A stretch of DNA of 64,000 nt. Source: Porphyridium purpureum. Its lineage: Eukaryota. Shown piece by piece: positions 12,456 to 47,993 of the stretch. Under the pieces are notes generated by a model. It was not told where the DNA came from and did not search any database. It saw only the letters and a program-made list of their open reading frames with translations. Position 1 is the stretch's first letter; every line of letters starts with the position of its first letter. The stretch covers positions 124,001-188,000 of the forward strand of contig VRMN01000019.1 in NCBI GenBank assembly GCA_008690995.1, in the 5' to 3' direction. The position numbers were made by a program, and so were the translations under genes.

Positions 12456-12551
12456 GCGTGTCTATATAATTTCCCTTTTAAACCAGTTTCAAACTATTTT
12501 TGCTCCTCAAGCCAGAGGTGAGCGCGCGCTTTTGCGGGACTCCATGAGGCT

Positions 12552-13733
12552 ATGAAAGAGTTCAAGGCATGTGCCAGAGGACCAAGGCATAGACTGCACT
12601 TAGGCATTCGATCATGTCCAGATGCACCAGCCGCAGGTCTTGGAAATAAAGCGATATGGCTATCCGAATTTGAGAGAGGCCACATTGACGCTCTGCACCG
12701 GCTCTGCCTGATGCCGCGGGCCATTGCAGCACGTTTTTGTCCGCGCCCAGGCAAAACTCGACGATCGTACAAGACTGTGGAGCGAGTTTTGAAGAATCGA
12801 GGCAAGAAAAGAGTTTTCAAGAAGCCCGGACAGGCACGGACAATATCGCCGAAATTGGAGCGTCGCCTGATTCGGCACGTCATTACGGATAGATTGACGT
12901 CTGCACAGGCAGTGACGGAGCTGCAGCTTGCGTGCAGTGCGAGAACTGTTCGCCGTATCCTGCAGAGATCACCGGAGGTTCGTATTATCGCACAGAGGCA
13001 AAAGTTCTTCATTTCGGAAAAGAACCGAGTCAAGCGGCTTGCATTTGCTCGAGAATACGTTCACAAGCCGCTATCGTTTCGGAAGAATGTCATCTTCTCG
13101 GATGAAAAGATCTTTCGGCTGGACGGGCCGCACGGGTACAACAATACTTATCAGCGAACGCGAGGCCCTGAGCCCGCGCCAACCATGCGTCGCCATAGTG
13201 GCGGAGGATCAGCGATGTTTTGGGGTGCCATGTCGTGGCACGGACTGAGTACGTTGCATCGTGTTCAAGGCTCGCTGAATGCCGAGCGATATCGGCAGGT
13301 TATGCTGAACTTCATGATGTTCTGGGCACTGGAGCTGCCTTGGCGCCTTGATCAGCCGGATTGCCCATTCATATTTCAGCAAGATAATGCGCCCGGACAT
13401 GCAGCGCTGAGCACGCGCGAGCTGTTTGACACGGTCGGAATCGCACTACTTGATTGGCCAGCGCGGTCGCCGGACTTGAATCCAGTTGAGAATCTGTGGG
13501 CGATCGTTTCTCGCCGTGTGCATTGGCAAGGACGCCAGTTTATGCGCCTCGATGACATGCTTCCAGTCATCTATGACTGCTGGCGAACGAAAGCGCCAAA
13601 GTATGTTGAGGGATTTATCGAGAGCACATCCCGTCGCCTGCAAGCTTGCATCGACGCCGCTGACCGTCAGATGAAGTGCTACTTCCGTCACTGGACTCAA
13701 ATCTCTTCTCATAAACATTCTTGTCCTGATTAA
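12552..13733 (+). mobile_element. Tc1-like DD34E transposase, open reading frame intact
   Basis: N-terminal HTH-like region (LSEFERGHI), IFSDEKIF, FQQDNAPGH, WPARSPDLNPVENLW with 34 residues between D and E. Candidate right end ...CCCGGACTG-TA near 13935; no matching left TIR found. Confidence 0.9.
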
Positions 13734-14766: not shown

Positions 14767-14887
14767 ACTTTTGGACCACATTAACACCACATTAACACCA
14801 CTTTTGGACCACTTTTGGACCACTTTTGGACCACTTTTGGACCACTTTTGGACCACTTTTGGACCACTTTTGGACCACTTTTGGACC
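14767..14887. repeat. 11-bp minisatellite ACTTTTGGACC, 11 units (2 variant units ACATTAACACC)
   Basis: Read directly from the sequence. Confidence 0.95.
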
Positions 14888-15349
14888 AGCTTAATTCTTT
14901 CCTTTGGAAAACGACAAATTCCATGTGAATCTAGGAATGCCCGCTACAACGTGAGGTAAAAGCTCGCGTCGATGAAGTGAGTCTTTGAGTCCTAAATGAA
15001 CTTGATAGAAAGATCCTTTGCAGGACCTGGCGGTCGAGCACGACTGCTGTGCGGGATGCTTTGGAAGTAGGCGCGATGAGTTAGTTTCTGGCACACGGTA
15101 CGGGTACCATTGGCGCAGATTCATTCAGGAGTTATAGATGCTTCGGCCAGTGCTTGTATCTGCGCTGCGGCAGTATTATAATTGATATGGCGTATGTACT
15201 GTCTTTTTCTTCATTCGATGGTAAAGACCCGGCAAGCCTCTGGTTCGATTTAGGTGCTCAGCTGCGCAGTCCGACCAACGCGACTGTTGCAAGAACCAAA
15301 CAGGATGAGCTTGGTCTTCACCTCGGCTGTCAATTTCCAGGTTTGCAAG

Positions 15350-15600
15350 GCAGCTTCAGTTTCCATTCGGACCTTTACACGTGCGGCATTTCTTGAAGAG
15401 CTCTTCCACGTTAATAGTCCTCCCAGACCACCAAGAGCTGTTGTCGGACATCAAAGCCGTAGTTTTTCGAACCCTAAAGTGTTCAGATGTAAAAGCTCCG
15501 TGCAAAGCGTTTAGAATGCGGGTTGCCAAAGTATCTGGCACTATCCGTCTCGGGCGATCCGTGAGCTGTGCCCACATGACATCAAACACATCTCCCACGT
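15350..15600 (-). pseudogene. Ty3/gypsy integrase zinc-binding (H2C2) relic
   Basis: IVPDTLATRILNALH...H...T...WWSG...VEELFKKCRTC matches the gypsy integrase HHCC pattern; downstream sequence is decayed. Confidence 0.65.
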
Positions 15601-15601
15601 A

Positions 15602-17040
15602 TCGTGCGACCAAATCGAGTAGGGGACAGTACCTTTTTCCAAGGTTTACTAGTAAATTGATCTGCATTACTATAGAAAGGATAGAGGTCGGGTGAAAAGG
15701 GAATGTGAAGGAGGTCAAAACGAATAGGGGACACGGCGCATTACAGGGTATTACCCAGCCATAGAGAATCGGAATTGGTCGCGATTTCCTTGCATGTTTG
15801 CGCCTCAACCATACGCACAGTCGAATATTCGTTTCGGCAACGACGCGTACAAATTGGCCAGTACAGGCTGGTCCAAAGTCTCCCAAGCCAGTAAAATGGC
15901 ATTCTTGAGCTCTAGCACCGTCTGATACTGCCTTGCACCCTCGTAAACCTTGCGCGCTAGTATTCCCCACAGGTTCTCGATAATATTGAATTCCGGCAAG
16001 TACGCTGGCCAGTCTAGAAGCTCCACATTCTCGTCATTCATGAAATTCTTAACCAGGCGACTTGTGTGCACTGGCGCGTTATTCTGCTGAAAACCCATGT
16101 TCGGGCCCGCTATCTGACGGCAGCGGTCCAGCACATTGTCCTCTCGAAGCAGGGAGAAATATTTTGCAGCCGTAAATGACCCCTCAATAAAATGAAAGTG
16201 AATCTTTTCTCTTGCAGAAATTGCACCCCAAACCATTCATCCACCGCCGCCGGAATGTCGCGACCAAACGTCTGGAACGTCCGCCGCACGCTCAACCCAC
16301 GTCTTGTGGAAACCATCGGGTCCGTCCAGGTTGAACTTCTTTTCGCCAGTGAACACAATTGCGGTCCAATTGGTCTGTTCCAGCTGATGGTACCTGGCCC
16401 AGGCCAGTCTCTTGAGCTTGCGATTGAGTGTCAGTGGCGGACAAGCTGGAATTTTGCGGTATGCATACGTGTCACTCACTGCCTTAATGATTGTTGTCAA
16501 ATTTTGGATTGGTTTAGCTCCACAAATTCGCAGAGCTGCTTGAACCTGACGTGCCGTGTGAATGTTTGGAAGCTTAGCGATGTTAAAAATCTTCGTTTTG
16601 ACCGCCTCAGCCAGCTTCGAAGCGTTCACATTGGCATATTTCTGGCAGTAGTCGTTTGGAGCCGACAAATAGCGGAAAACCACGTTCTTAGAGCGCCCAA
16701 TTTTGGTCGAAATGGCTCTCACGCTGTTGCTCGACTCTCGGAGACCGTGGATACGTCCGTTCTCCTCGCCCGTAAGGCCAATATTGCGCCCCGTGGAGTC
16801 AAAATGGAGCTCTTCACGAGCTGCGATGGATCCGCACTTTTCCGCTTACACTGAACCGCCGACGTCCGAGATATTTCGCTTCCACGCAGTGTCCCGTGTC
16901 CGTTTCGAGCCACAAATTTCGTCGAAACCGTTGCAGACGAACCCCGCCGTTCTACTTTCATAGCAAAAGATCAAAATTTACTATTGATTAAGTCTTTTTC
17001 TGAAAATTTTGACTGTCCCCTATCCGATTTGGTCGCACCT
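15602..17040 (-). mobile_element. Tc1-like transposon with 29-bp TIRs and TA flanks; dead transposase (~15805-16800)
   Basis: Left TA+TCGTGCGACCAAATCGAGTAGGGGACAGT versus right (reverse complement) TA+AGGTGCGACCAAATCGGATAGGGGACAGT. In-frame TGA at 16237-16239; catalytic aspartates altered (FTGEKKF, QQNNAPVH). Confidence 0.9.
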
Positions 17041-17042
17041 TA

Positions 17043-20000
17043 CAGCGGACGTACTCCGCGCTATCTAGCACCCAGGCACTTCCGTCGTTGCAGACGTTAA
17101 CGCCGAGGTACAGGATTGGTTTGGCCTTCGTGCTCTAGGAAATGAGCAGTGCGGCCTTCGTAATGCTGAATAGCTTTGCCAGCTCGCGCATTGCATCTTG
17201 CACGGAGGCCGTGGTGCCTATGATGCCGCCATCATCCACATAAGGGACGAGCAGCGTCAGCACGCCTGCTCGGTGGCGCCAGTACACGTTGCGGTCTGAC
17301 GCTGACTCTTGCCAACGCGCACCGGTCAACTTTTCGCGCGCGTGCGCGGAAAAGTCAAAGCCTGCTCGAGGTAGCCCATACAGGGCCACGGGCAGAGGCA
17401 CGACAGGATCCTTCAGCGTCGCAATCTTGCGCATGTCGTTTCGCGGCAAAACACCATCTAAGAACGGCAACATTGCCTTGAAGTGTGCGAATGTCGGGTT
17501 GCCCTTGAGTGGCGCGTGGACGTAGGCCGCGTCGATGTCGAAGAACATCGCGTCTGCCGCGGCGCTGTGGACGTGGAGCGTGACCGACACTGCCGCGCGG
17601 ATGCTGGAAAGCCCCGGCGTGCGATCAAACTGCAGCGTTTCGGGTGGCGCACGCCGACCATCGGCGTCGGTGATGTGGCAACCTTGTGCCACGACGCGGC
17701 ACTTGAGCACGCGGTGCTCTGGCGGCATTTCGTGGTCCTTGACAGCCATGATTGACTTCAAGTTGTCGACGCGGGAATGCTTGACGCGCGCAGCCTCGCT
17801 CTTGCCGAAGGCCTTATGGAACGGCAGCGCTCCGCTGCCGATCAGCGTCTGCATTTCTTTCGTAAACGCGAATCTTCCGGCTTCCGTGAGCGCGTGCGTG
17901 GCGAATGCCACAACCTTGGCCACGCCGAGATCGGCACCAATGCTGCTGCTTGCTGCATCTTGGTGGGCGGCACCATCCTGATGCTTTGACTGCGCCAGCT
18001 GCGCCACACCCAGCACCGCTTCCAACACGCGTGCGTCGCCTGCCTTTCTGTCGCGCCGATGCTCTTTGAACCGCATGGCGCGCTCGCCGAGCAACCCAAT
18101 GGCTGCCGCATGAGATCAAAGCTCCTTGCTTCCGAACCCACGAAGCAAGTCACCACCATTCTCATCAGTGAGAGCCCAATCGGGACCGTGCGTCTCATAT
18201 CCCGAAGCGCATCGTTCATTTCTGCGCTCCACACGCGCCGCTCACGCTTTGCACCAGGCTGCGCCACTGCAGGCGCAGGCACGCCATGCTCCTGCACGGC
18301 TTGGTCCTCTCCCACATCGTGCTGCATTGCGCGAGCACCTAGTGACGGGTCAATTCTCGGATCGATCGCAGCATTCCTCTCCGGCATTACACGGGCAACT
18401 GTACGCCTTCTTGGATATGAAGTATTGCAAGGAGACACCTGTGTGGATAATCTCCACTCGCCTACCCACCTCGCCGCTGAAAAGCAGAGATCCGCGAAGG
18501 GGATCGCGAGGATGTTGAGGCGCGATCCAATTGTCGTCGGGGATGGTACGCGGAGACCCATGGCGAGGGCTAGCGTGCCCGGCGAATCGAACTTGCTGCG
18601 ATCGGGCGCCATGACGTGGATCTCCCTTCCGAACGGCGAGATGTCGCGGTTCCACGGAAAACCGTAGAGCGCCTCGTTTCGCGTCGTGCCCAAGGCACCT
18701 TTCCAAATAGCGTTGCGGGCAACTGCCCAATACTGCGTCGCAAAGGCGAACCATTCCGGCTCGAAGCCGGCGGCAAGGAGCAACGCGCAGATTTTTGAAT
18801 TCAGGTCACGGTGAACGCGCTCGTGGGTCGCGTGGGTACTCGGGCGGTGCGCCAAACCAATTTCGTGGGCGACCAAGTTAGTCTTTAAGGCCGTTTCAAA
18901 CGTGCCTTGGAACTCACCGCCCTCGTCGCTCTTGACGAGGCGCGGCTATCCGCGTCCTCTCTGGATCTTGAGCAGCGCCGTCAGCGCGCTCTCGGAAGTT
19001 TTGTTTGCGAGGGGGGCCACCACGGGCCAGCCTGTGGCTGCTTCGCGGTGTGTGAAGAGCCAGCGCGTGCCGCATATTCCGACTTCAGTCGGATCAACCA
19101 ACTCGACGGAGACGGTTTCGTTGAAGCCCGCGAATCGGGTAGTCTCTTTCTTGCGCGGCGCGCGAAGCGTCTTTAGCTTCGCCGCCTGGCATGCGTCACA
19201 ATCCGCTCTTGTGGGCATGTGGAGCACATCGTGTTCGACGGCCAGTGTGCCGTCACTGTGCTGTTCATTCGTCATGTGCCTGCTCGCATCAGCGCACTCG
19301 AGCGTGTCTAGCTCCTGATTTTTGGTGATCTCACCTTCTGCGTCAACCTTGGCTGGGTTGCGCCGGAGAACGTGGCCGCCGACCTGTATCTTCATGCCGG
19401 GCTGCGGAAGCCAGTCGAGGCCAAGGATCAGGGAGTGGTGCCCTGTGCGCACCCACGCGGACGCGTGCTCGTTGGTGATATCTGGCACAGCCAGTAGGAA
19501 TGTGGTCTTGCCGCTGATCGGCGTGCTTCGGCCGTCAGCGAGCCGGATGCGTGGACAATTGGGTCCACTCGTTGTGAACGGGAAACGGAGCCTGTGGTAG
19601 AGGTCCGACACAAATGTGGCTGTGGCGCCGGTGTCGACGACGGCTTGGGCCTGGTGCCCGATGATAAATACCGGGATGCGCATCAGGTCCGAGGCCTCAA
19701 TGGCGCTCGTGCCTATCTCGAGCTCGGCGGCTCGGAGTTCTTGTGTGCACTGGGCGGCCCAATGACCACGTCGCCCACAATTGTGGCACGTGTCATTCGC
19801 CGCGCGGCCGGTCTTGTGCAGCGCGTGGACATTCTTTGGAGCAGCGCGCTGCGGTTGCTTCTTGCGTCCCTTGCCCTTCTTCTGTGCTCCTGCTTGGCGA
19901 TGCGGCGCCTCGGCCGTGCCGAGATCTATGGGGGCAACGTCTTCGCTGGCAAATGCCGATGCGTGAACGCTCTGCCGGTAGCCCGTGTCTACGGCCAGCG

Positions 20001-21265
20001 CGTCGTGGTACGACGACGGCTGCTTTAGCAAAACTTGGATTTGGATTTTGCTGCTAAGCCCTTGCACAAACCTGTCGAGGCGCTCAGAGTCACTCACTCC
20101 CGGAAGACGAAGGAGGCAATTGCCAAAGTCGTTGACGTACTCGTTTACGCTGCGGCCCCTTTGAGAGCAGGCGGCAAGCCGGTCTCGCGCAACCTGGCTG
20201 GACGCCATAGGTTCGAATTTGAGTTTGAAAGCATCCAGGAACTTCGCAAACGTGACTGGCTTTGGATCCAGCACGGACCACTAGAGCCTGACGGCTCCGT
20301 GGAAGAACGATGAGGCCACGCGGACGCACTTCAACTCCGCCTCGTCGTCCCAAGGACAGCCACCGAGGCGATACTCCTCCTCGAGTTGCGTGAGAATTGG
20401 GGCGTTGGCGGCGTCGCACCACGCAGCAACTGCGAGAGCGTCGCGTCCTCCAAGGAAGGCGACCACTGGTGCGGACTTAACTTGCGAACTCGCGTCTACA
20501 CGCGCGTATGTGCCGCTGCGCACACGGTGCGTTTTGGATGCGAGCGCCGCGCACTCCTCCTGTACTTGCCCAATGAGTTCATCGCGCATCCGCGAGAGCT
20601 CTTGGGCCATAGCCTGGCGCATGAGCTCGACTTCGCTCGACACGCCCGCCGACGCCTGTTGCTACTGCTGTTGTGCAGCTGCTTGAGCAGCAAGCTCGGC
20701 CTACATGGCCTTCTGCTGCTGGCGAGCAAGCGCTGCTTTGCGCTCTTGCTCCAGCTGTGTCGGGGTTCCTTTGACCTGACCCCATCGCGGTGAGCCCACT
20801 GCTCTGTGCATCTCTGCACAAGCCTTCTTATTTCAACCGTCTTTTGCAGCCAGACCCTGCCTGTTCGCGCCGTTTCTCTTGAACGCGCTGGTAGCTGTCG
20901 CTGTTGTGCCGTGCTTCTCGTGCACGCACTTGTCGCTGACGCTGTTGAGCTGTGCCTTTGCACAACCGTATCTTTGGAACAGTCCCACTGCCTTTATCGC
21001 GCCTCGCGCCTTGTGCACGCTCCGATCTTCTCCAAACAGCTTTGCTGCTGAGGTGGCGCCGTACCTCGTGCACGCGCTTTTGGTAGATGCCTTGCAGCTT
21101 ATGGAGCCGTTGCTGCTCCTCTTTCTCACTTGAGCTTCTCAAGTTCTTAAGCCTTACGATGCTGCTCGCGTCTTGCAAACGAGGCTAGGACCGAGGTGAG
21201 AAGGACAAATGGTTTCTTGAGGAAAAGGACCGCAGCCGCAAGGATAGCGGCTGGGCTCATAATCC
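17043..21265 (-). mobile_element. Truncated LTR retrotransposon, Gag-PR-INT-RT order, RNase H and 3' LTR missing
   Basis: Gag from 20643 with CHNCGRRGHWAAQC; PR VVDTGATATFVS; INT H..LHMP..CDAC, SDEGGEF, HER; copia-type RT KCRVVAQG, DIDAAYVHA, LYGLPRAG, YVDD, YLG. Stops at 20281, 18946 and 17135, and a frameshift near 18100. Confidence 0.88.
21251..21265 (-). promoter_or_regulatory. Primer-binding site complementary to the initiator tRNA-Met anticodon arm (half-tRNA priming)
   Basis: Minus strand reads GGATTATGAGCCCAG versus the GGTTATG(A/G)GCCCAG type of copia/Ty5/Osser. It lies upstream of gag; a minus-strand TATATAAA sits further upstream at 21801-21808. Confidence 0.7.
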
Positions 21266-21445: not shown

Positions 21446-21603
21446 TGTACCTGTGTGGCGCCGTCGACGACGACTGCCGACAGCTCTACTGTCGCCCAAT
21501 GCGGGCACACATGAGCCTGAGCCTGCATCGTCTGCCTCGACATGCACGTAGCGGCTCACTCCGCGTACCGGAGCAGAACGCCCGCGCTGGATACTTGGGT
21601 ACA
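21446..21603 (+). repeat. Possible short solo LTR (TGTACC...GGTACA)
   Basis: 6-bp terminal inverted repeat, flanks GCTTA/GCTTG. Its 3' ~55 bp match 22270-22279 plus 29039-29087. Confidence 0.45.
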
Positions 21604-21962
21604 GCTTGGATTCCTGAAGAAGTATACTGCAAGCCGGTACAATAAAGTTAGCGGCCCGATGCTAACTGTACTCCACTACTAGAGACACACAAAGTGTGCA
21701 GACGACTATCTCAAACCAAACGTTTAACCAAGATGTCTCTATTCCATCGTCCTTTCTCTTACGCCTGTTTCTCTCCGCCATGAGTGCGCGACCGCGCCTC
21801 TTTATATAGACGCCCGCCGGGCGCTTGGTGATGCGCTCTGACCCATTCGAGGCACACCACATCAGTATCCAGCGCCACACTAGCCAAGTCACATCACATC
21901 ACATCAAGCCCGCCGGGAGCGGGACCGGCAACTTCCCACGGTTTGTCCTCGTCTGACGCAAC

Positions 21963-22279
21963 TGTACCCACGCGAGTGTGCACCTCGCATTCTTGCGGTA
22001 GTGGAACGGTGCGGCAAGGCAATGGGTATGCGTGAACGCGAGGTGGGCGTTCCAACAGCGCGTGCCGCGTGGTGGGCGCGCGGGGCACATTTAGCAGAAG
22101 CGCGCAGATTTAGGCGAAGCGGCGGCGCGCGGGTCTAAATGTGCTTGGCACGGCGAAGCGTAGGGCGCGGACAAAGCACACTCGCGGGCAAGGAGTGTTG
22201 CTGTCCGCTTGCCCGTTGGTTGGTTGTTGTGTGAAGTAAAGTTGCCACGAATTGGGTTGTTTGCTTTCAGTAGCGGCTC
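21963..22279 (+). repeat. Left part of an interrupted LTR-like sequence whose right end lies at 29044-29087
   Basis: Starts TGTACCC; after removing two TSD-bounded insertions it ends GGGTACA at 29087. Contains CGGGCAAGGAGTGT like neighbouring LTRs. Flanks GCAAC/GCTTC are not a clean TSD. Confidence 0.5.
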
Positions 22280-22557
22280 TGTAGTGTACACTGGGTGTAC
22301 ACCTCGTGGCTGTGTTCAGTATGGGTAGAAGAGCGAGCCGCGATTGTAAGCGGCCGGAGAGCGCGAATGGTCTCACTAGCCCGCTCTTTCGGGTAAGGAG
22401 TGTTTTCTTGGAGCGTGCTCGTCGACTACCAGTAAAGCTGTGTTTGTTGGTTTCTGCGGCACTGCCACACCCTTCACGCGCACACGAACAGCGCGTACGC
22501 GTGAGCTCGATCGCCGCACCACTCCGTTGGCCATCGAGGAGGACGTATTCCTCTACT
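22280..22557 (+). repeat. 5' LTR (TGTAG...CTACT)
   Basis: Direct repeat of 27861-28130 plus 28773-28780; 7 substitutions counted by eye. Confidence 0.93.
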
Positions 22558-22572
22558 CACGCTCCAAGAAAA
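22558..22572 (+). promoter_or_regulatory. Putative self-primer binding site
   Basis: CACGCTCCAAGAAAA abuts the LTR end and is the exact reverse complement of TTTTCTTGGAGCGTG at 22403-22417; no TGG tRNA PBS is present. Confidence 0.8.
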
Positions 22573-22605
22573 TCTGAGAGTCTGCGACACCGGTGACAAA
22601 CGAGA

Positions 22606-23715
22606 ATGTCACGTGTCGGACAAAGCGGCGCAGGCCGTTCGCCGCACCCACGCGAAGCCGGTCTTGTAGAGACACTTCCGCTGCTCACTTACGACAGCAC
22701 GCGTGTGGTGCCGGCCGCGGTGGTAGTTTGGGTCGAGGAGCTCGGCAACTACTGCAAGAAGGAATACGGCGCTATCGGCACAGCGTTTGCGATAGAGCGC
22801 CAAGGACGCGTGTACCCCACCTTGCCGACGATCCCGCAAGCAACCCCAGGGCTCGGGGAGGCGGGACGGGAGGATTGGTACAGCGCCACCGTCGCCAAGG
22901 AAGAGCTCAAGCTGGCGCTCGCGGCGCGCTCGGACGCGATACGCAAGGACAAGGAAACTCGCGTGCGCGTGTTTGGACTCATCATGGGCCAACTGAGCCG
23001 CGCATCTAAGGAAGCGCTGGCCGTAAAGCCCGGCTGGAGTCAACTCGTACGAGAATCGGACGATCCGCTGCAGCTTCTCGAGCGCGTGATCGAGGCGCAC
23101 CTGACCCGTGGCTACGACGACCCGCTGCGTAACCAGCAGTATGCTCGCATGTCGTACGACCAACTGAGAGTTGGAGCAGACGAATCACTTGTTTCGTTCA
23201 AGACGCGCTTCAAGGCAGCGGTGATGGTGCTTGAAGCCGTGGGCGAACCAGTGCCGTCTTCCGAGCGCTGCGCGGCTGACTTTATCCTAAAGCTTGAAGG
23301 TACGCGCTGGGACGAAGCCGTACGCAAGTGCAACAACGAGCACCGACGGTTCGACACGGTCGACCAGGCAATGTCTTTCATGGCGCAGTTCGCGTACGCG
23401 AAACAACCGGTACAGGGTCGCACTTGGCGGACGGACACCGAACACCCAGAAGACGAGGACACAGATGATGTGGAGCTCGCAGCAGCACCACGCGTACGCG
23501 AATGCTACAACTGCGGCGCGGATGATCATCTCCTTCGCGACTGCCACGCGCGACCGCTGGACAGCGGAATGGCCGATAGGATGCGCGCGGCGAAGGAGAG
23601 GCAGGCGCGCATGGCGAGGCGCGACACGCGCGGACGCGGGCCGGTGCTGGCCGGGGCGACGGAGCAACAGCTGCGGGCCGCACTTGACGCGTTGAAAAGG
23701 AACGCCGATGCATGA
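22606..23715 (+). CDS. Gag of the copia element
   Basis: 369 aa ORF with ATG start and zinc knuckle CYNCGADDHLLRDC; ends at TGA followed by CGG. Confidence 0.88.
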   Translation: MSRVGQSGAGRSPHPREAGLVETLPLLTYDSTRVVPAAVVVWVEELGNYCKKEYGAIGTAFAIERQGRVYPTLPTIPQATPGLGEAGREDWYSATVAKEELKLALAARSDAIRKDKETRVRVFGLIMGQLSRASKEALAVKPGWSQLVRESDDPLQLLERVIEAHLTRGYDDPLRNQQYARMSYDQLRVGADESLVSFKTRFKAAVMVLEAVGEPVPSSERCAADFILKLEGTRWDEAVRKCNNEHRRFDTVDQAMSFMAQFAYAKQPVQGRTWRTDTEHPEDEDTDDVELAAAPRVRECYNCGADDHLLRDCHARPLDSGMADRMRAAKERQARMARRDTRGRGPVLAGATEQQLRAALDALKRNADA

Positions 23716-26700
23716 CGGTGTGCGACGTGGCCCACGGGCTTCGGTGACGAGATACCTTTGGGTCTCGACACCTGCTCGGGTGTTCACGTCATGAAGGATA
23801 AGGGGTTAGTCCATCGGGTAAAGAAAATTGACGAGTATTTGCTGCTGTCCGGAATTGACGCGCGGGCGAGCGAGCTGGCCATCGGGCACGGCGGTAATAC
23901 GGCCTTCGGCATGGCGTACGTCAACGAGAACCTTGCAGGCAACGTGCTGTCTATGACCAAGCTGGTCGCGGAAGGGCATGATGTACGCTTCGACGAGGAT
24001 GAGAACCGCTTCCGCGTACGCGTGCCGAACTCCAAGCGCTGGCTGGTCTTCGCGCCCGATGCACACGGAATGTACACTGCGGTGGTACGGCGTGCAGATC
24101 TCGTGCACACGACGGGTCCAGCATACAACAAGGCAACCACGAATAAGGACAAGCGGAACAGCTGCCGGGCCGGTCCATCGTCTGCCAAGGCTTGAACCTC
24201 AAGCACAATCACGACGGTCGCCAGCAACCTTGCCCGATGCACGGTACGCGAGGTTGAACGCGCACGCGCCGCTCGCTCTCTGCAGGCGAGGCTGGGATTC
24301 CCATCCTTTGGTGTGCTGAAGCGCATGTTACAGCGCGGGGACATAAGCAACTGTGACGTCACGTCGGCGGACCTCGAGCGTGCGAATGCAATCTGGGGTA
24401 CTCCACTGCCGTGTGTGAAGGGAAAGACAACGGGACACGCGACACCGAGGCTGTCTGAAGCGGTCGCCACTGGTCCCAAAGCGCGCCAGGTGATGCACTC
24501 CGACCTGATGTTCATCTCGAAGGTGCCTTTCCTCGTGTCGGTCTTGAAACCGAGTCAATACATCCTGGCCACCGAGCTGAAGCGGAAGGACGCGCCTTCG
24601 GTGCGCGCGGCGGTGCAGCGGCAGTTGAACGAGGCCCGCGGGTATGGAGTGCAGATACCTGAGATTCGGTTCGACCGTGAAAGTGCAGTCCTGTCGCTCT
24701 GGATCGAGTTGATGCAGGCCGGCATCCTGCCCGAGCTAACCGCGGCAGACGAGGTGGTGCCCGCCGCTGAGCGAGCGATTCGCCTTCTACAGGAAAGGGT
24801 CCGCACATTGTCGTACGACCTGCCGTACACCATGCCATTATGCATGCTGCCGGGAGCCGTGGAGTTCTCTCATCAGAGACTGAAAATGGTGACGAGCGAG
24901 GCCTCCGACGCGGGCGAACCGGCGCACGCCATCTACTTTGGTCGTGAAGTAGACGCGAAGACGGACCTACGTGCTCCATTCGGGGCGTACGTCCAGGCAC
25001 ATACAGCGTCCGTGGACAGCACGATGAGACCCAGAACGTTGGGTTGTCTCACCCTGCACTCCGCCGAGAATGCTGCGGGAAGCTGGGTGCTCATGAATCT
25101 GAACACACTGAAGCCCATCGTCAGACAGGTGTGGACAGAGCTCCCGGTACCGGACCACCTGATCACGTACGTAAATGCGCTCCCAACCGTGGCAGGCATC
25201 GACGATGGCGATCAGGACCTCGGCCGCACGGAGGTGGAACTCTCGCAGGAGGAAGACAAAGAGACGGCGGAGGTCGAGGCGGCGCTAAAAAACGGCGGGC
25301 CGGTCGACGAGCCAGCGGCGGAGGCGCACACGTATCTGGACCAGCCAGAAGACGCAGTACTGCGTGAACAGGCGCAGACTCCGACACACGCCGACACCGA
25401 TCACCCCGCACCGGCGGGCGCCGACGTGCTGAGTAAGGATGAGTCACCGTCCACTCCCACGCAGTTGCGCATGGAAGAGATGCGACGTGCAGCGGATTCA
25501 CTCTTCGAGGCGGGGCGAGCAATGACGCCAGCGATTGCGGAAGCGACCGGCGAGGGTCTGCCAAGCACGGACGCAGTACTGCCGGAGCCGCTTATCGTGG
25601 CAGAATCTGTGGAAACCCATGTGCCCGAGGAAGAGGCGTCGACTGATCCACCCGCTACTGCCGCACGGCCGCACGGCGACGCCACAATCACCAGTCCGGA
25701 CGCTTCAGACGGCGAAGCGGCCTTGACCCCCTCGGTCGCCGAGGTGACAATGGAACAGGCCAAAGCGCGGGTGGAAGCAATTGAAGAGAAGCTGCGAGCG
25801 CTGGAGGAACGCGAGGCGCGTCTGCTGAGTCAGATGACCACGCAGCCATCGTACGCGGACGCCGTCCGAAATGCGGTACCGCGCACGAGCGAAGCCGAGC
25901 ATGCCCGCGCCGTCAGCTCTCCGCGTCGGACACGGAAGCGGAAAGCAGAAGGGACATTCCCGGACGTCGAGCGCGAAAAGAATGAGCGGCTATTGCGCCG
26001 CGAGAAGGAACGCCTGCGTGTACGGCGTGCCCCGGAGGTCGTGGTCGCCCTGAAACGAGAGGCGGAAGGCTTACTATCTTCTGCGATGCCGGGAACGCGC
26101 AGACACAAAACGCTGAGGATCGGCGTACGCCAGGCGATACGCCAGTACGGTATGGAGGGACTCAATGCGATTGTTGCTGAGCTGTTGCAGCTGTCCAAGC
26201 ACGGTCTGGACGTGCTGGAGCCGGTCCACGTGCACACGCTCACGAAGTAACAACGAGACGGGATCACACCGTCGTTCATGTTCGTGAAGGAGAAGCACGA
26301 TGCTTCAGGCGCCTTGGAGAAAATCAAAGCACGAATGGTGGCCGGCGGAAACGAGCAAGATCGATCGGAGTACTCCGACTGTTCGTCTCCCACGGTGGCG
26401 ACCGAGGCTATCTTCCTACTGGCAGCCGAGGCAGCGAGAAGCGGTGCCGCAGTCGCCACGATTGATTTCCCCGGGGCGTTTCTCAATGCAAACATCCCCG
26501 ACAGCGACCCACACACGTACGTGAGGATCAACAGAAACCTGACCGGGCTGCTCGCCGCCGTAGACAAGCGCATGAAGCAGTTCGTCAAGAACGGCGTTCT
26601 GGTCTGCAGGCTGAAGCGCCCGCTGTACGGATGCATCGATGCGTCTAAGCGTTGGTATGACCACCTCTGCGAGATGTTTAGCGAGCTCGGAATCGAACAG

Positions 26701-27774
26701 AACGCTTACGGCGCTTGTGTCTTGCGCAAAGTCTCCCGTACGGGTGAGCCTTCCGTCACAGCGCTTGTGCACGTGGACGACGTGAAGCTGATCGCAGAAA
26801 GCGAGCAAGCGATTGATGGAGTGGTGGCGCGCGTACGCGAAAGGTTTCCGTCGTTGCAGGAGCACCGAGGGCGCACACACAGCTACCTGGGGATGGAGTT
26901 TGACTATACCTCCTCGGGGGTAGTGCGCATCGGGATCGGCGGGTTTGTAGACTCTTTACTGCGAGAGAATGACGTACGCGGTACCGCAGACACGCCCGCT
27001 CAAGCCGGGTTGTTCGTGGATGACGAGTCGCGGTCACTGACGTCGCACGACAAGGAGGCGTTCCACAGCGCCACCGCAAAGGTACTATACCTCGCGAAGC
27101 GCATACGCCCGGACCTGCTCACTGCGGTTGCGTTTCTGGCTACGCGAGTGCAGGCGCCGGGCGAGAATGACCGCGCGAAGCTGACCCGCCTGCTGAGGTA
27201 CCTCAACAAGACGCGAGACATGAGGCTGGAGCTGGGCACGGGTTGCGCTGCAGACGAGCGCGAGCCCGATTGCGCGAGCCATGCAATGCCGCACGTAGAG
27301 TGCTATGTCGACGCCTCATTCGCGACACATGCGAACATGAGGAGCCACACGGGTGGCGTTGTGAGTTTGGGCCGCGGCGCGGCATACGCCACCAGTGTCA
27401 AGCAAAAGCTCAACACAAAGAGCTCCACTGAAGCGGAACTGGTGGGCGTGAGCGATGTGATCGGGCAAGCGATATGGACGCGGAACTTCCTCGAGGCGCA
27501 GGGCATCCGCACAGCTGGCGTACGCCTACACCAGGACAACGAGGCGACCATGTCTCTCCTTGCACACGGTCGAGCGACCTCGCGGAGATCGCGCCACATC
27601 GCGATTAAACACTTCTTCACGCACGATCTGCTGAAGAGGCGAGTCGCGACGATGGTACATTGTAGTACCGAGGTCATGATCGCGGACCTGCTGATCAAAG
27701 CGCTGCAGGGAAAGAGGTTCGCACACCTCCGTGATATGATCCTCAGGCGTGCGCCGACAGCGCAAGAACCGTAG
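23716..27774 (+). pseudogene. Pol (PR-INT-RT-RNase H), in frame with gag, with internal stops at 24193 and 26248
   Basis: PR LDTCSGVHV; INT HSDLMF / FDRE / AERAIR; RT IKARMVAGG, DFPGAFLNA, LYGC, HVDD; RNase H YVDASFA, SSTEAE, QDN, ADLL. Confidence 0.9.
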
Positions 27775-27860
27775 GGCGTACGCATCGTCTCGCGTGACTC
27801 GCTTCGCCGTCGGGTGGCTCGTGTGGAGTGGGTGGTAGCTTCCATCGCGGCGAAGGAGTG

Positions 27861-28130
27861 TGTAGTGTACACTGGGTGTACACCTCGTGGATGTGTACAG
27901 TATGGGTAGAAGAGCGAGCCGCGATTGTAAGCGGCCGGAGAGCGCGGACGGTCTCACTAGCCCGCTCTTTCGGGTAAGGAGTGTTTTCTTGGAGCGTGCT
28001 CGTCGACTACCAATAAAGCTGTGTTTGTTGGTTACTGCGGCACTGCCACACCCTTCACGCGCACACGAACAGCGCGTACGCGTGAGCTCGATCGCCGCAC
28101 CACTCCGTTGGCCATCGAGGACGACGTATT
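27861..28130 (+). repeat. 3' LTR, main part (last 8 nt displaced to 28773-28780)
   Basis: Matches the 5' LTR; AATAAA at 28012-28017. Confidence 0.93.
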
Positions 28131-28767
28131 TGTTGTTATTCGTTCTCCGCTGGGGTAATGTAAGCACAAGAGATTTCTAGCAGCAAACACCGTTTATACC
28201 CACAGGGACTAAAAGTATGATTTCACTCCTTCCAACCGTAACTACGGACTCCTCCCTTTCGCAGAGCGACGCCTTCTGTCGCCCTTTTTTATACTGCGAC
28301 CGACGCACCTCCGGGAGCGCAAGAGGGCGCCGGGCGGCCGCTCCCAGCGAATCATTTAACGCCTCATTGCTAATGTTATCCGTTCGACCCCAGTCACCTA
28401 GAACGGTTCGGTTAATCCGAAACCGGTAAGCCGCTAAGCCGGTAGACCGTTTAACCGTTTCTAGAAGCTTCTAGAGGTTCCAGAACCTTCTAGACGCGCG
28501 CAGAAATGTCAATGATTTGCATTGTCATTTCTCTTGGCGCCTTGCTGTCCCTGGCGGAAGTAAGGGTATAAAAAGGCGACGCGCCTGCCCGGACTAGCCG
28601 GTCAGGTCTTGCTCGAAGACAGAAGAGGTAAGACGCAGAGAGTAAAAAAGGCACAGCATTGGTAACAGCTAACGCCATCAAAGGCATCCACGGACCAGTG
28701 TCCGCAGTCCATACCTTCCCACCTCAGTACAGCAAATGTGTACAGTGGTCCGCCACATTACTCCACA
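28131..28767 (+). mobile_element. 637-bp solo LTR inserted in the 3' LTR, TSD GTATT
   Basis: TG...CA ends; GTATT at 28126-28130 and 28768-28772; host LTR resumes with CCTCTACT; TATAAAA near 28567. Confidence 0.88.
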
Positions 28768-28787
28768 GTATTCCTCTACTGGCTCAC

Positions 28788-29038
28788 TGTTGGCTTCAGC
28801 CCGATTATGGAACCTAGGTACTGTTGTGGACATGTGCGCCGCTGGATGTGGCCACCGTTTGGCTAAGCATTCAGTGTCCGATAAAAGGACTAGCGCGTCC
28901 GTCATAGCGGCCGTGGGCTGGGGCTGCCGGGTAAGGAGTGTGTTTTGTTTGTTTCCCGACAGACCTTAGCAGATAAACATTGTTGTTGCATCTCCTTCGT
29001 GTTTGACCAGGGCGCTCGGAGCGGGGTTTACACCTACA
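28788..29038 (+). mobile_element. 251-bp solo LTR, TSD CTCAC
   Basis: TGTTGG...CCTACA ends; CTCAC at 28783-28787 and 29039-29043; removing it restores a sequence matching 21548-21607. Confidence 0.85.
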
Positions 29039-29355
29039 CTCACTCCGCTTACCGGAGCAGAACACCCGCGCTCGATACTGGGGTACAGCTTCAATTCCCA
29101 ATCACGGTTTCTACTGTACCGCGCCGCGCTTGAATCGGTTTAAACGGTTCACCGACTTGGCGTTTCCGGGGGGCGCGTATCTTGGGCGCAGCGGACGTTT
29201 GCGACGCGGCTGTGGTGGCATGAGCTGTGCGTGCGGCGAGGACGTCCGCTCAGAAAGCGCGCGCTAGGACTGCAGACGCGCAGCGCCTTCCAGCAACGTG
29301 GTTTCGACGCGGCATTTGTCTTTTCCGTGTTTCTCTTTTGTTGTGTAAATCCGAA

Positions 29356-29637
29356 ATGTCCGCGGAGCCTGGCAGTGAGCCTGCTGCGCCATGCGGCAGC
29401 GACGTGCCCGTGGGTATGCCGGAAGATGAGCATGGGACGGCTCCTCCGCCGCGGATTGATACAATGCCGCGCGCTCACCGGCTTATATCACGCGTGGACT
29501 CGCTAGTCCGCAAGGGCCTGAATGCGCCGGCAGCCTTGTACGAAAACTTGAACGATGTCTCGCACACCAGCGACGACCACGACGACCGCGACGACCGCGG
29601 CGAGACCAGCACTGCGCGCTCGAATCATTCTGACCAT

Positions 29638-29672
<35 letters not shown>

Positions 29673-32214
29673 GCAGCGGCGGCAGTCAAATGCAGATGAA
29701 GAAGTCAAATTTGTGACCGATGTGTTTGAAATGCACTCGCGCGGTACCCGACACAAGCTGCTGATGGAGACGTTCAGTGGGTCGCAGATGACGGGCGTGT
29801 TGGCCATTTTCACTGTGGGAATCCTGCTCAGCTTGTCCTTTGCCATTGTCATCGCGTTGTCAGACGTGGGTACCGGGAACAGTGCTTCGCTCGTCTACGA
29901 TGACGACCCAGATACTTCCGCGCAACTTGACACGCTGTTCAATCAGATAACTGGCAACTTGAACTTTCAGATCATCATGGGCTTCGTGGTGACCGGACTC
30001 TTCATTCTGGTCGGGCTCGACCTTCTGTTTGCGTGCTTGCGTGCACCGAAAGCAGTTCGGCTTCCGCAGCAGCTCCTCATTCTCGGCATCTTGCCTTTCA
30101 TAATTATGGGGGCAGTTCCCTTCAGAACCCTCTCAGTGAAAAAACTTTTTGAAGAGACCGACTTTTCGAGCGGCGATAGGACGTACGAATCACTGTCAGA
30201 GGTGCTGCAAGCGGAACAGGGCGGGTCGAGAAGTCTGCCTCGGCTCGCGCAGGCATTCTATGCCTTATATCAGGGTGTTGTTATGTTCTATATGCTTGTC
30301 AAGCCGCGCATGCTAGGCAGCATTGCACCTGTGCCGATCAGCTCGTTCGTGTTAATAGCCGTATGCTGCTCTCTCTACGTGGTAACGCTTTGTATTTCGA
30401 CAGTCTACATGGAGCTCATCACGAACTTGCCGGTATTCTGTGGGTTTTTCCGCGTCATTCGGTGCCTGACCATTGGCATCAACAGCGAAGGGCCTAATGT
30501 GTCTGTGTTTACCTTTTGTGTGCTGCTCTTCCTTGCGTTGATTGAGATCAGTTTTATGGTGACAATTTTTATGGAGATTAGCCGCGCCGAGTTTGAGCTA
30601 CGCGGGTGTGTATACCAGCTCTTCCGGGCACAGTCGCTCGCGCTTTCGATGCTGAAAGTGAATACCTGGCAGCTTGTCATAACGTCATGGATCTGCACCG
30701 CGATCCAGTTCTCGAGTGTCAACGAAGAGGAGGCGCAGCTCTTTCTCAATGCCACAGGGCGACTTTTTACCGATGAAGTTCGCTTCTCGGCCGCGAGTTT
30801 CACCTACCTTGCGTTTCTTTTTGTCGAGGTAATCCTGTCATACCCGGCTACCGCAAAGCGCATTTTGCTGATCCCTCTGAAAAGGGTCGTTCAGATGCAA
30901 GCAGGCCTCGAATGGAAGGCGCGCATGAGTCACGACAGCGATGGGAATGTCATTTGCGAGCCACGAGTTCTGGTTCTAGAAATGTTGACCCTCATGATGA
31001 ACTTTTCTGCTTTGGCATACAAGTTTGGGAGCGCATCTCTAGATGAAGCTGGCGAAGCAGAGCTTGATCACCGTGCACAATCGGACCTCGGCGTGCTGAC
31101 AAAAAATAAGTTTCGCCTCGTGCATCATATGCAGCATGGAGAATCAGACACTCACGGTATTGTGTGCGAGGCGGACGATTGCATTGTGGTCGCGTTCCGC
31201 GGCACAAAGTCGGCACAGAACATCAAGTCAGATTTGCGTGCAGCAAGCGTGAGTCTGAAAAAAGTGCTGGGGACCACTGCTCGTGCTGGCCAAGGGCATA
31301 CTAGCACGCAGGACATTCAAAGTCGGTCATTTGAAGAAGTGCTAAGCCGGGTATCGATTCCAGAAGCTGGACATCTCCGTTTGAGCAAATGTACCGACCT
31401 GAGTGAGGATATTGCTGTGTTGCGAGACGCGTACGACCATGCGCACGAGCGCTTTTGCCGTGTGCATGGGGGGTTCGCGGACGCCTATATTTCAGTGCGC
31501 GACGAGGTGGCGGTGCTGGTCCAAGTGTTACTGGCCATCAAACAACGGCCCGTGTTTGTGACGGGCCACTCGTTGGGCGGTGCACTGGCAACATTGTGTG
31601 CGTACCATCTCAGCAAAGTCTGCAGCGAGAGCGTGCGGGAGAAGCTTGTTTTAGTGACCTGTGGATCACCGCGCGTGGGTAATTTTTTCTTCAACCGTCG
31701 CTTCAAGGAGCGCGTACCGAACGCTTGGCGCATCCATGTGGAGCGTGATCCGGTTCCGCGAGTCCCGAAAGCGCCGTACATGCACGTGGGCACTCAAGTG
31801 ATTCTGCGCGTCGACGGCGAGATTGTGGCTGATCCTGGGATTGTCGAGGAGCTGCACTTCAAGCGGCAGCGCATCAAGGTGGCGCACCACCGGATGTGGA
31901 TATACCGCGGCATTGTGGAGGCGTTCTGCTCGCTGTACACGAGTCCTGGCTTTGTACCAGATATCTGGATCATGGGCGAAGCGTGCCCGGACGAGCTGCG
32001 CAAGGCAGTTCGGCCGCCGGCGGACAAATTTCGCAATGCGCAGCTGCTCAAAGTCGAGACGCTCATTCGCGAGCACATGGAATTCGGCGACCTGTACGAA
32101 ACGTTCCATGCGACGATATCTGAAAGCGCGGCGTGCAACTGGAGATCTCTCGTGGACCATCTCCTCGAGCATGACGAACACCCGACCAACCCACGTGCGC
32201 ACACGCAAACATGA
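29356..32214 (+). CDS. Multi-TM membrane protein fused to a class 3 lipase domain (paralogue 1)
   Basis: Many hydrophobic segments, then IVVAFRGT, VHGGF, VTGHSLGGALA, GSPRVGN, DPVPRVP, HVG and HH. Confidence 0.88.
29638..29670 (+). repeat. (CAG)11 encoding polyglutamine
   Basis: Read directly; in frame within lipase paralogue 1. Confidence 0.9.
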
Positions 32215-32571
32215 AAGAAACTGCATCCAGCTACATCTACTCCTCGTACATATATACTAGACGCAATCTGCTGTGTTTGTCTTCCCCACATAACATGCTG
32301 CCGCGCCTTCCCCTGCTCCTGGCGCGCCACTTCAAGCAGCGTGAGCAGCGTGCGTCCCGCGCGCGTCACGCGTGTGTCAAACACTCTTCTATCAAATCCG
32401 CGCGTTTTACTAGAGACTTAAGAGGTACACTTCTCTCAGCTGTACATCCTTTTTTATCCTTCTTTTTTAACTCTTTTTTTCACCCCGGTGGCGCATTTGT
32501 TCGCGGCAAAGAGACAAAGAGCGCGAGACGCCAGAGGAAAAGAAGCCGGTGGCGTCCGCCTGCATGCGGCC

Positions 32572-35244
32572 ATGGAGGGCAGTGACGGTGCGCGCACCGC
32601 GGTGCGCGGCGCCATGGACGCGGATGAAGAGGCCGGCGTCGATGGAGTCGAGGGTGCCGACCGCTTGTCGGAAATGCACGACCCAGAAACCGACCACGAG
32701 CATTTGATTGGCCGCGTCGACTCGTTGGTTGGCCGCGGCGCGCAAAAGGTGGAACAGCTGCATGCAGAGCTGTGGGGTGAGGATAACCGCACGACAGAGC
32801 TGAACACGTTTGTCACAGATGTGTTTGAGATGCACTCGCGCGGCGCAACGCACAAGTTGCTCATGCAGACGTTCAGCGGGCGCCAAATGTCGTGGATTTG
32901 GCTGGCGTGGGCTCTCGGTATTCTGTTGAGTCTGGTCTTTTCAATTCTGGTGGCCTTTACAGGAGAGAATGGAGGGACTTTGACAGTCGTTTCCGGGCCA
33001 AATGGTGAGACACAGTCGTACAGCGAAATTCTCACCTCAGTGATACAGAATCTGAGCTTTCAGGTCATTATGGGCTGGCTCATTGCTGCCTGCTTCGCTT
33101 TCTTATGGTTCGACATGTTGCTCAACTGGCTGAAAGCGCCGCGGAGGATACGCGTGCCGCAGCAACTGCTTGTTCTGTGCCTACTGCCCCTGTTTGTGCT
33201 CAGCAGCATCCCATACCGCGCCATCCGGTATCGGCAGCTCTTTGATGAAAGTCCTTCTGGGGACGTTTCCATCGGGAGCCTGGCCGCGGCTCTGCAAATA
33301 GACCAGTCGAGCATCGATGATGCGCTGCGCGTCGTCGGCCAGGTATTCTATTCACTCATCTATGGCGCTTTTGCATTCTACATCATAGCCAAGCCGATAT
33401 TGCTACGCAGGGTCTCAAGGACAAGGAAACGCAAGTACGTCCTGCTGGGAGCCATGTGCACGCTGTACTCGACCGCCATTTGCCTGTTCACATTATGCAT
33501 GTCGATCGGAACCAACGCGCCTCCATTCTGTGCGTGGCTACGCGTCATTCGCTGTTTCCAGGTCGGCATCGGCACTGGACCGGGAAGCTTGAGCGGGTTT
33601 CAGTTCGGGGTGTGTGTTTTCCTCGCGCTATGTGATTTCGCGTTCTTGCTTGCCTCGCTGGGTGAAGTTCGAAGGTCGGAAATCGTGTTGCGCAGCGTCG
33701 TCTATCATCTTTTTCGCGCGGATGTCCTTGCGCTCTCCTTTTTCAAAATTGGCCTTCATTTGCTTGTTGTTTGGTCTTGGGTTTGTACGAGCATCCAGTT
33801 TGCGCCGATTCCCAGTGAAGATGTTATCGTCATGCTCAGAATATCCGGTCGTTTGTTCACTGATGAGCTGCGCTTTCCATCAGCCACGTTTGCCTTCTTG
33901 GCGTTCATGTTCATTGAGGTTATTTTGTCATATCCCGCGAGCGCAACGCGAATTTTTCTGGTCGTCCCCTTGCGTCGCCTTGTGACGCACGGGCGCGCGC
34001 TTGAGTGGAAGGCGCGCATGAGCCGCGACGATGAGACAGGCAACGTGATCGTCGACCCTTCTGAATTTGTGCTCGAATTGCAGATCCTCCTAATGAATTT
34101 TGCAGCCTTTGCGTACGACTTTGGCGTCGCGGGTAAAACGCCCCGGGACGTGAGCGTGCTTTCCAATGGTACGTACAAGCTGGTGGCGCACATCAGCAAT
34201 GCAGTGACAGACACGCATTGTATTGTTTGTGAGGCAGACGATAGCATCGTGGTGTCATTCCGCGGCACTCTATCTGCGCAAAACGTCAAGACAGACATAC
34301 GGGCGGGCCCGCTTCACGTACGCCATATTCTTGACCTTGACAGCAAGAGTCTTCAGTTTGACAACGGAGCGTGCGCGTCGGACAGTAGCAGTCCACGCTC
34401 AAGACAGAACGTTTCGGAGGGTCTTGACAAAAAATTGCTCCATCGGCTCGACCTGCTGCAATTTATGAGTGAAGATCTGGATCGTCGCGTGGTCAAAGTG
34501 TACGACCACGCAACTGAAAAATACTGCCGCGTCCATGCAGGGTTTGGCGAGGCGTACGTTTCAGTGCATCAGGATGTCATCGTTCTGGTGCAGCTCCTAC
34601 TTTTGGCGAAAGAGCGGCCTGTGTTTGTCGCCGGCCATTCGCTCGGCGGCGCGCTGGCCACATTGTGCGCATACCATCTTAGCAAAGTCAGTCAAGAAAG
34701 CGTGCGGGACAAAATTGTGCTTGTGACATGTGGTTCCCCGCGCGTGGGAAACTCAGCCTTCGCCCACCACTTTCACGAGCGCGTCAAAAACGTGTGGCGA
34801 ATCCACGTCGAGGGCGACCCGGTACCGCGAATGCCAAAGCTACCGTACTTACATGTGGGCGCAGAGCTGATCCTGCGTATCGACGGCGAAATAGTGGCAG
34901 ATCCGACACTGGTCGAGTCGGTCCAGTTCAGAAGGCAACCCATCAAGGTCGCTCACCATCGGATGTGGGTTTATCGCGGAATTGTGCAGACCTTTTGCGA
35001 ACTGTACACGGCGCCGGGCTTTATTCCCGACATGTGGGACCTCGGCGAGTTCCCCGAAGAATTTTTAAAAGCCGTGCGGCCGTCTGAGGAGAAAATTCGG
35101 AATGCCCAGCTGCTCAAACTTGAACGCATCATTCGCGAGCGGTCAGAGTTTGAAATACTGTTTCAAGCGTTCAAGACACAGCTGCCAGACCATGTGTCTT
35201 CCAGATGGAAAACTCTTATCGCGGCCTTGCTTGCTTCTGGCTGA
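32572..35244 (+). CDS. Multi-TM membrane protein fused to a class 3 lipase domain (paralogue 2)
   Basis: Collinear with paralogue 1 (shared FVTDVFEMHSRG, GRLFTDE, LEWKARMS); VAGHSLGGALA and DPVPRMP. Confidence 0.88.
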   Translation: MEGSDGARTAVRGAMDADEEAGVDGVEGADRLSEMHDPETDHEHLIGRVDSLVGRGAQKVEQLHAELWGEDNRTTELNTFVTDVFEMHSRGATHKLLMQTFSGRQMSWIWLAWALGILLSLVFSILVAFTGENGGTLTVVSGPNGETQSYSEILTSVIQNLSFQVIMGWLIAACFAFLWFDMLLNWLKAPRRIRVPQQLLVLCLLPLFVLSSIPYRAIRYRQLFDESPSGDVSIGSLAAALQIDQSSIDDALRVVGQVFYSLIYGAFAFYIIAKPILLRRVSRTRKRKYVLLGAMCTLYSTAICLFTLCMSIGTNAPPFCAWLRVIRCFQVGIGTGPGSLSGFQFGVCVFLALCDFAFLLASLGEVRRSEIVLRSVVYHLFRADVLALSFFKIGLHLLVVWSWVCTSIQFAPIPSEDVIVMLRISGRLFTDELRFPSATFAFLAFMFIEVILSYPASATRIFLVVPLRRLVTHGRALEWKARMSRDDETGNVIVDPSEFVLELQILLMNFAAFAYDFGVAGKTPRDVSVLSNGTYKLVAHISNAVTDTHCIVCEADDSIVVSFRGTLSAQNVKTDIRAGPLHVRHILDLDSKSLQFDNGACASDSSSPRSRQNVSEGLDKKLLHRLDLLQFMSEDLDRRVVKVYDHATEKYCRVHAGFGEAYVSVHQDVIVLVQLLLLAKERPVFVAGHSLGGALATLCAYHLSKVSQESVRDKIVLVTCGSPRVGNSAFAHHFHERVKNVWRIHVEGDPVPRMPKLPYLHVGAELILRIDGEIVADPTLVESVQFRRQPIKVAHHRMWVYRGIVQTFCELYTAPGFIPDMWDLGEFPEEFLKAVRPSEEKIRNAQLLKLERIIRERSEFEILFQAFKTQLPDHVSSRWKTLIAALLASG

Positions 35245-47785: not shown

Positions 47786-47993
47786 CGCTGTACTCCGCTG
47801 TACTTCGCTGTACTCCGCTGTACTCCGCTGTACTCCGCTGTACTCCGCTGTACTCCGCTGTACTCCGCTGTACTCCGCTGTACTTCGCTGTACTTCGCTG
47901 TACTCCGCTGTACTCCGCTGTACTCCGCTGTACTCTGCTGTACTCTGCTGTACTCTGCTGTACTCTGCTGTACTCTGCTGTACTCCGCTGTAC
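47786..47993. repeat. 10-bp minisatellite (CGCTGTACTC), about 21 units
   Basis: Read directly; variant units TACTTCGCTG and TACTCTGCTG occur in blocks. Confidence 0.95.

Follow-up and report, generated by a model that had tools for sequence, protein, structure and literature searches.

A predicted self-primer in a Ty1/copia retrotransposon of the red alga Porphyridium purpureum and its covariation with the primer-binding site in related families

To our knowledge, experimental proof that a retrotransposon primes its own reverse transcription exists only for Ty3/gypsy elements of the Tf1 type. In Tf1 of S. pombe, the transcript's first 11 bases anneal to the PBS (primer-binding site), the cut by RNase H falling between bases 11 and 12 (excerpts of PMC7175516), in a fold termed the pretzel that has two flanking duplexes beside the primer duplex (excerpts of 10.1101/2022.12.06.519325). 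Within Ty1/copia, excerpts of PMC6317226 predict self-priming for the plant TAR lineage, including Houba and Osr-1, for which an earlier proposal is cited there; the criterion applied is that sequence 0-5 bp behind the LTR finds a complement of 10 bp or more inside it, and TAR, a lineage of land plants, is listed among the groups that mostly use tRNA-Met. Fungal GalEa elements are also copia without a tRNA PBS, which is replaced by a Conserved Hairpin Site of unknown role that lies wholly downstream of the LTR and for which no LTR complement was found (parts of PMC5445492). GalEa-like elements occur in Porphyridium, and the PBS of crustacean (metazoan) GalEa is that of tRNA-Met (parts of PMC3587641).

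The element described here lies on the plus strand of a 64-kb stretch of the Porphyridium purpureum genome (contig VRMN01000019.1, positions 124,001 to 188,000; hereafter the window). We consider it likely that its family uses the first 15-16 nt of its own RNA, and not a host tRNA, to prime minus-strand synthesis. As in Tf1/Tf2 and the Tf1/sushi group, the PBS is complementary to a segment inside the LTR where the transcript is predicted to begin, and no tRNA-type PBS is apparent; unlike Tf1, a Ty3/gypsy chromovirus, the element belongs to the copia superfamily, and its duplex measures 15 nt (12-19 nt in its relatives) against 11 bases in Tf1. Self-priming is an experimental result for Tf1 and a prediction for the window element. 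Like TAR, the latter is a Ty1/copia element with predicted self-priming; its own complement exceeds 10 bp and starts directly behind the LTR. It comes from a red alga and not from land plants, and in contrast to the fungal GalEa hairpin the partner sequence lies inside the LTR. The original prediction had implied that self-priming would be new to copia, which overstated the case, TAR having been predicted already (excerpts of PMC6317226). Among titles and the opening lines of abstracts, a scope that leaves most subscription papers outside, no report of self-priming was found for CoDi-like or red algal copia; the lineage is apparently undescribed, and the mechanism itself is known and has once been predicted in copia.

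Table 1. Features of the Porphyridium Ty1/copia element (window coordinates).
Feature	Position	Strand	Remarks
Left target-site duplication GGCTC	22275..22279	.	matches 28781-28785
5' LTR	22280..22557	+	end set by target duplication and loose read ends
AAGGAGTG	22395..22402	+	identical to the final 8 nt of the element's polypurine tract; immediately 5' of the predicted self-primer
Predicted self-primer (predicted transcript 5' end)	22403..22417	+	exact complement of 22558-22572; start predicted at 22402/22403
Poly(A)-signal position (putative function)	22431..22436	+	AGTAAA here; AATAAA at 28012-28017 in the 3' LTR
Predicted primer-binding site CACGCTCCAAGAAAA	22558..22572	+	directly after the LTR, zero spacer
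gag, 369 aa, CCHC knuckle	22606..23715	+	stop codon TGA, then CGG; same frame as pol
pol, order PR-IN-RT-RH	23716..27774	+	stops at 24193-24195 and 26248-26250; RVT_2 match
Polypurine tract CGGCGAAGGAGTG	27848..27860	+	adjoins the 3' LTR
3' LTR, first 270 bp	27861..28130	+	LTR alignment
637-bp TG...CA solo-LTR-like insertion, duplication GTATT	28131..28767	.	junction also present in RNA reads
3' LTR, final 8 bp CCTCTACT	28773..28780	+	followed by GGCTC
Right target-site duplication GGCTC	28781..28785	.	matches 22275-22279

Placement of the PBS depends on the LTR end, which a simple alignment of the two LTRs put at 22549, or 28130 in the 3' copy, because the 637-bp insertion splits the 3' LTR. 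The last 8 LTR bases lie beyond the insertion and are followed by GGCTC as in the left flank; therefore the LTR is 278 bp long and the PBS abuts it without a spacer. In reads from other samples, mixed loose ends start behind 22557 (13 reads in X21, 9 reads in X22), and the internal contig from both DNA runs begins at 22528, which would make 22558 the first unique base if the words were 31 long. The LTR end at 22557 that had been proposed from the outset is thus fixed by the target duplication and the loose read ends. The two LTRs differ at 7 of 278 positions and have the non-canonical termini TG...CT, both ending in CTACT.

The assignment to Ty1/copia, as originally made from the RT and the domain order, held up. 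The pol of the element matches RVT_2 (PF07727, E=4.3e-17, Pfam) and not the RT of Ty3/gypsy elements such as Tf1/sushi, whose domain order is likewise not found; the RT-RH region forms the C-terminal part of pol, which places the integrase upstream in the copia order. PR, IN and RH are putative assignments from motifs rather than from Pfam matches; Pfam gave no integrase match for this pol, and a sister protein spanning the region upstream of RT carries the source name 'Integrase catalytic domain-containing'. Two LTRs, a polypurine tract (PPT) and a 5-bp target duplication are further Ty1/copia features. The termini are not the TG...CA of Ty1/copia, but they do not exclude membership, since copia elements with non-canonical LTR ends are known, for example TARE1 (excerpts of PMC3701649). 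The RT-RH region is 97% identical to the P. purpureum 'Copia protein' P0001, a sister with an uninterrupted pol, and the window copy is dead, with two pol stops that are absent from P0001. A PDB sequence search with P0001 gave zero matches, and among viral contigs none of 44 pattern matches was related to the element.

The 15 nt behind the 5' LTR are the exact reverse complement of 22403-22417, as originally predicted, and an RNA wobble pair G22402-U22573 could extend the 15-bp duplex by one. The complement lies far beyond chance: in 20,000 LTR shuffles, the longest one beginning 0-5 nt past the LTR end was 12 nt, reached once. When 22402-22620 was folded, the duplex had pair probabilities of 0.8-1.0, and the minimum free energy structure was a single long-range duplex enclosing local hairpins. 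Both arms are unchanged in the contigs of DNA runs X5 and X6. The poly(A)-signal position begins 28 nt after the start of the partner sequence, in agreement with the spacing first noted, and the PBS, said to lack a TGG-type start, indeed does not begin with TGG; nor does it match the GGTTATG(A/G)GCCC-type motif. ARAGORN found no tRNA gene in the 64-kb window, and Rfam had no match within 21800-23000.

Relatives were retrieved by polyprotein alignment, yielding 79 metagenome loci (the best 80 of 538 were confirmed, drawn from 7 of the collection's 64 parts) and 43 further loci from genome bins. Of these 122 loci, 74 were usable, having both the pol end and the 5' region, and 48 were dropped. 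One rule, which takes the longest perfect complement that the bases behind the candidate LTR end have in the upstream sequence, was applied alike to the 74 loci and the window and to 20 dinucleotide shuffles of each of these 75 regions. A self-complement of at least 12 nt was present in 39 of 75 regions versus 0.55 expected from the shuffles; placed right after the LTR end and 12-19 nt long, it occurred in 38 of 64 loci inside the clade of the window element and in 0 of 10 other regions. The in-clade count falls to 35 after removal of a low-complexity artefact (L067), a locus with a doubtful LTR end (L104) and a duplicate (L095, of L094); these 35 include L009 and L081, which were counted only through end motifs added after the first results had been seen. 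The proportion was 26 of 34 in the subset with a contiguous stretch from pol end to gag. Among loci whose LTR start could be fixed independently by the PPT motif it was 14 of 18, relatives having AGG(A/G)GTG immediately 5' of TGTTG (PPT / LTR start); 13 of these 14 LTRs end in CAACA.

The pairing is specific to each family. Within a family, PBS and LTR are complementary over 12-19 nt, against a cross-family maximum of 10 nt (1332 pairs), and the first 12-mers of 37 PBS are all distinct, with a mean identity of 40% and 0 of 37 beginning with TGG. In all self-complementary cases the duplex covers no more than 0-1 nt of the LTR end; at its far edge, 30 of 37 have YYA or TC|A, motifs which we take to resemble an initiator. 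A GGTTATG(A/G)GCCC-type site, presumably a half-tRNA-Met PBS, was found in six outgroup copia loci and in none of the in-clade loci. The covariation called for in related families was therefore borne out, the self-match being kept with different letters in 35 relatives, and because the complement exceeds chance and covaries family by family, self-priming is likely; judged from these sequences, it probably extends to the whole group of relatives. Fewer than 12 nt were found in 26 of 64 in-clade loci, many of them without an LTR-leader junction; five (L004, L005, L006, L086 and L106), which form one subgroup of the tree, have a clear CAACA/TAACA end, yet only 9-10 perfect pairs. L080 and L081 are near-identical; L081 has a perfect 17-nt duplex, and in L080 a single A-to-G substitution on the partner side would still permit a G-U pair. 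The loci L080-L118 are eukaryotic copia contigs inside prokaryotic genome bins and likely reflect binning contamination.

A quick tree of the RT-RH region (69 rows), built with SH-aLRT support only, with long-branch warnings and without named CoDi or TAR sequences, joins the window element to five proteins of P. purpureum (SH-aLRT 98), and a 62-row group that includes it is separate from seven other copia (SH-aLRT 100). The self-complementary loci are spread throughout this 62-row group, and the group of the window element consists mostly of environmental elements. We take the RT and RH motifs of the window element to resemble those of CoDi (diatom Ty1/copia Branch 1, with GalEa); no named CoDi sequence was among the matches listed in three protein searches and a cluster look-up. 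Excerpts of PMC2806351, PMC2774666 and PMC5348765 contain no mention of CoDi priming.

By analogy with Tf1, the transcript would start at about 22402/22403, its 5' end would fold back onto 22558-22572, the RNase H of the element would cut after 22417, and RT would extend the 3' end of the primer from the last LTR base. Plus-strand synthesis would then copy the primer back into the PBS in every cycle, and because of this recopying the two arms would stay matched while their letters drift between families. Unlike in Tf1, one longer duplex would suffice without a pretzel: in a crude search for perfect complements only, the two flanking duplexes beat shuffles (p<0.05) in 3 of 33 and 0 of 33 elements, and the window element was in neither set. 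The original prediction that the element uses the same mechanism as Tf1 therefore stands in part, with the own-LTR complement and its covariation in its favor and no pretzel flanking duplexes detected. Particular to the present case are this lack of a detected pretzel, the TG...CT ends and the PPT copy directly 5' of the primer.

Independence from Tf1 is a reasonable conclusion. An extended model, which we regard as improbable, holds that self-priming would have arisen in a large Ty1/copia branch of red algae and many environmental microbial eukaryotes separately from Tf1 and from TAR, with a single 12-19 bp duplex and no pretzel, and that in the Porphyridium branch the LTR-internal PPT copy, where RNase H would cut, rather than the cap would define the 5' edge of the primer, one cis-signal thereby defining the minus- and plus-strand primers.

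Several observations count against the main reading, in which transcription starts at about 22402/22403. Two RNA runs with 51 and 178 reads show no pile-up of read starts at 22403, and coverage over 22390-22450, at low depth, rises in X21 and falls in X22. The window primer lacks the YYA of the clade and is preceded by the PPT-like motif instead, which holds for 1 of 36 self-complementary elements (the window element only), and TCTCAC lies at 22371-22376, 27 nt upstream of the primer; for these reasons the start could be elsewhere than at 22403. RNA reads, again at low depth, gave no splice joints, including from GTAAG at 22393. A G22417A change, present in 6 of 14 RNA reads in X21 and 7 of 27 in X22, has no counterpart among the changes listed at 22558 and would cost the duplex its 3'-most pair; the variant may come from a solo LTR. 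Considered as a candidate for a general host promoter motif, the octamer AAGGAGTG has 7 matches in the window against an expectation of 1.8; of the 7, 5 are LTR- or PPT-associated and none lies clearly at host genes. Three different LTR-like sequences have it behind GG(T/C) (22190, 22395 and 28933), with a poly(A)-like signal 28-37 nt further on, and 7 RNA molecules start at 22252, 12 nt past the signal of the first of these (the 22190 motif). A promoter role of the octamer is the simplest reading, a signal for RNase H the bold one.

These observations allow the LTR-derived primer to be pictured differently, as supplied in trans or cut from a longer leader, with a start upstream near TCTCAC and a 5' edge marked by the PPT-like octamer, or with an origin in a second packaged RNA or a solo-LTR transcript. 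That the octamer is the end of the PPT and adjoins the primer, that an initiator-like motif is missing at 22403 and present 27 nt upstream, and that U5 of the LTR is transcribed into the flanks would all suit such a source; yet in three LTR-like sequences the octamer keeps the distance from the poly(A)-like signal that a promoter or initiator would, and T22401-G22402 fits the pyrimidine-purine rule for transcription starts. An RNase H cut behind the polymerase would, moreover, hardly limit what is copied into the PBS. We hold a primer of this origin to be very unlikely.

Somewhat less credible still is the proposal that the duplex between R and the PBS is a conserved structural or regulatory element, acting in packaging, translation control or masking of the PBS, with priming by some host RNA or tRNA fragment. 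The fungal GalEa hairpin offers a precedent (excerpts of PMC5445492), but 37 distinct PBS each match only their own LTR, and a structural hairpin would have no need to end with the LTR in each of the families, as the duplex does. The chances are negligible that the match is a coincidence, an assembly artefact or, the LTR being mis-called, its terminal inverted repeat. The early uncertainty over the boundary, when the LTR alignment ended at 22549, gave room for this; with the boundary set by the target duplication and the reads, which also rule out the 15-mer as a terminal inverted repeat of a longer LTR, with none of the 20,000 shuffles exceeding 12 nt, and with the self-match recurring in 35 relatives, it is refuted.

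If self-priming by the first bases of the transcript is correct, a widespread copia clade would represent a further and probably independent escape from host tRNA, a copia-type RNase H would be able to cut an RNA-RNA duplex, and the failure of tRNA-based annotation to find these elements would be accounted for. P. purpureum is cultured and transformable and, together with the sister copy that has an uninterrupted pol, could provide a test system outside yeast.

The gag frame ends in TGA at 23713-23715 followed by CGG in the pol frame, an arrangement common to 4 of 4 annotated copies, all with a gag of 369 aa (stop position taken from the proteins), whose pol gene models begin at the first Met after this TGA. 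The protease-like motif DTCSG precedes the first pol Met, and because it lies upstream, synthesis of Pol likely needs readthrough of the gag stop codon, as judged from the reading frames. UGA-C is a leaky stop context. In L005 and L064, too, two long ORFs are separated by a TGA-C that is in frame.

The insertion site is a hot spot (22269-22280, 28781-29098), with three LTR-type insertions within ~15 bp of one site, namely the window element (GGCTC), a solo LTR of 251 bp (28788-29038, with CTCAC duplicated) and an LTR-like sequence ending at ~22269; the site sits in a repeat that recurs at 21548-21614. A neighboring element has Ty3/gypsy-type gag, protease and integrase zinc-finger matches and carries GGATTATGAGCCC at the PBS position (21253-21265, minus strand), which we take to resemble a half-tRNA-Met site. 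Among plants, a half-tRNA-Met PBS is given for copia only (excerpts of PMC6317226). Tc1/mariner-type transposase genes lie at 15599-17043, 5537-6595 and 12522-13733, the first with 32-nt inverted ends and inside the gypsy-type element. Lastly, the window holds tandem arrays at 47786-47993 (10-nt unit CGCTGTACTC) and 14767-14888 (11-nt unit ACTTTTGGACC), and two tandem class 3 lipase paralogues of ~950-1000 aa at 29224-35244.
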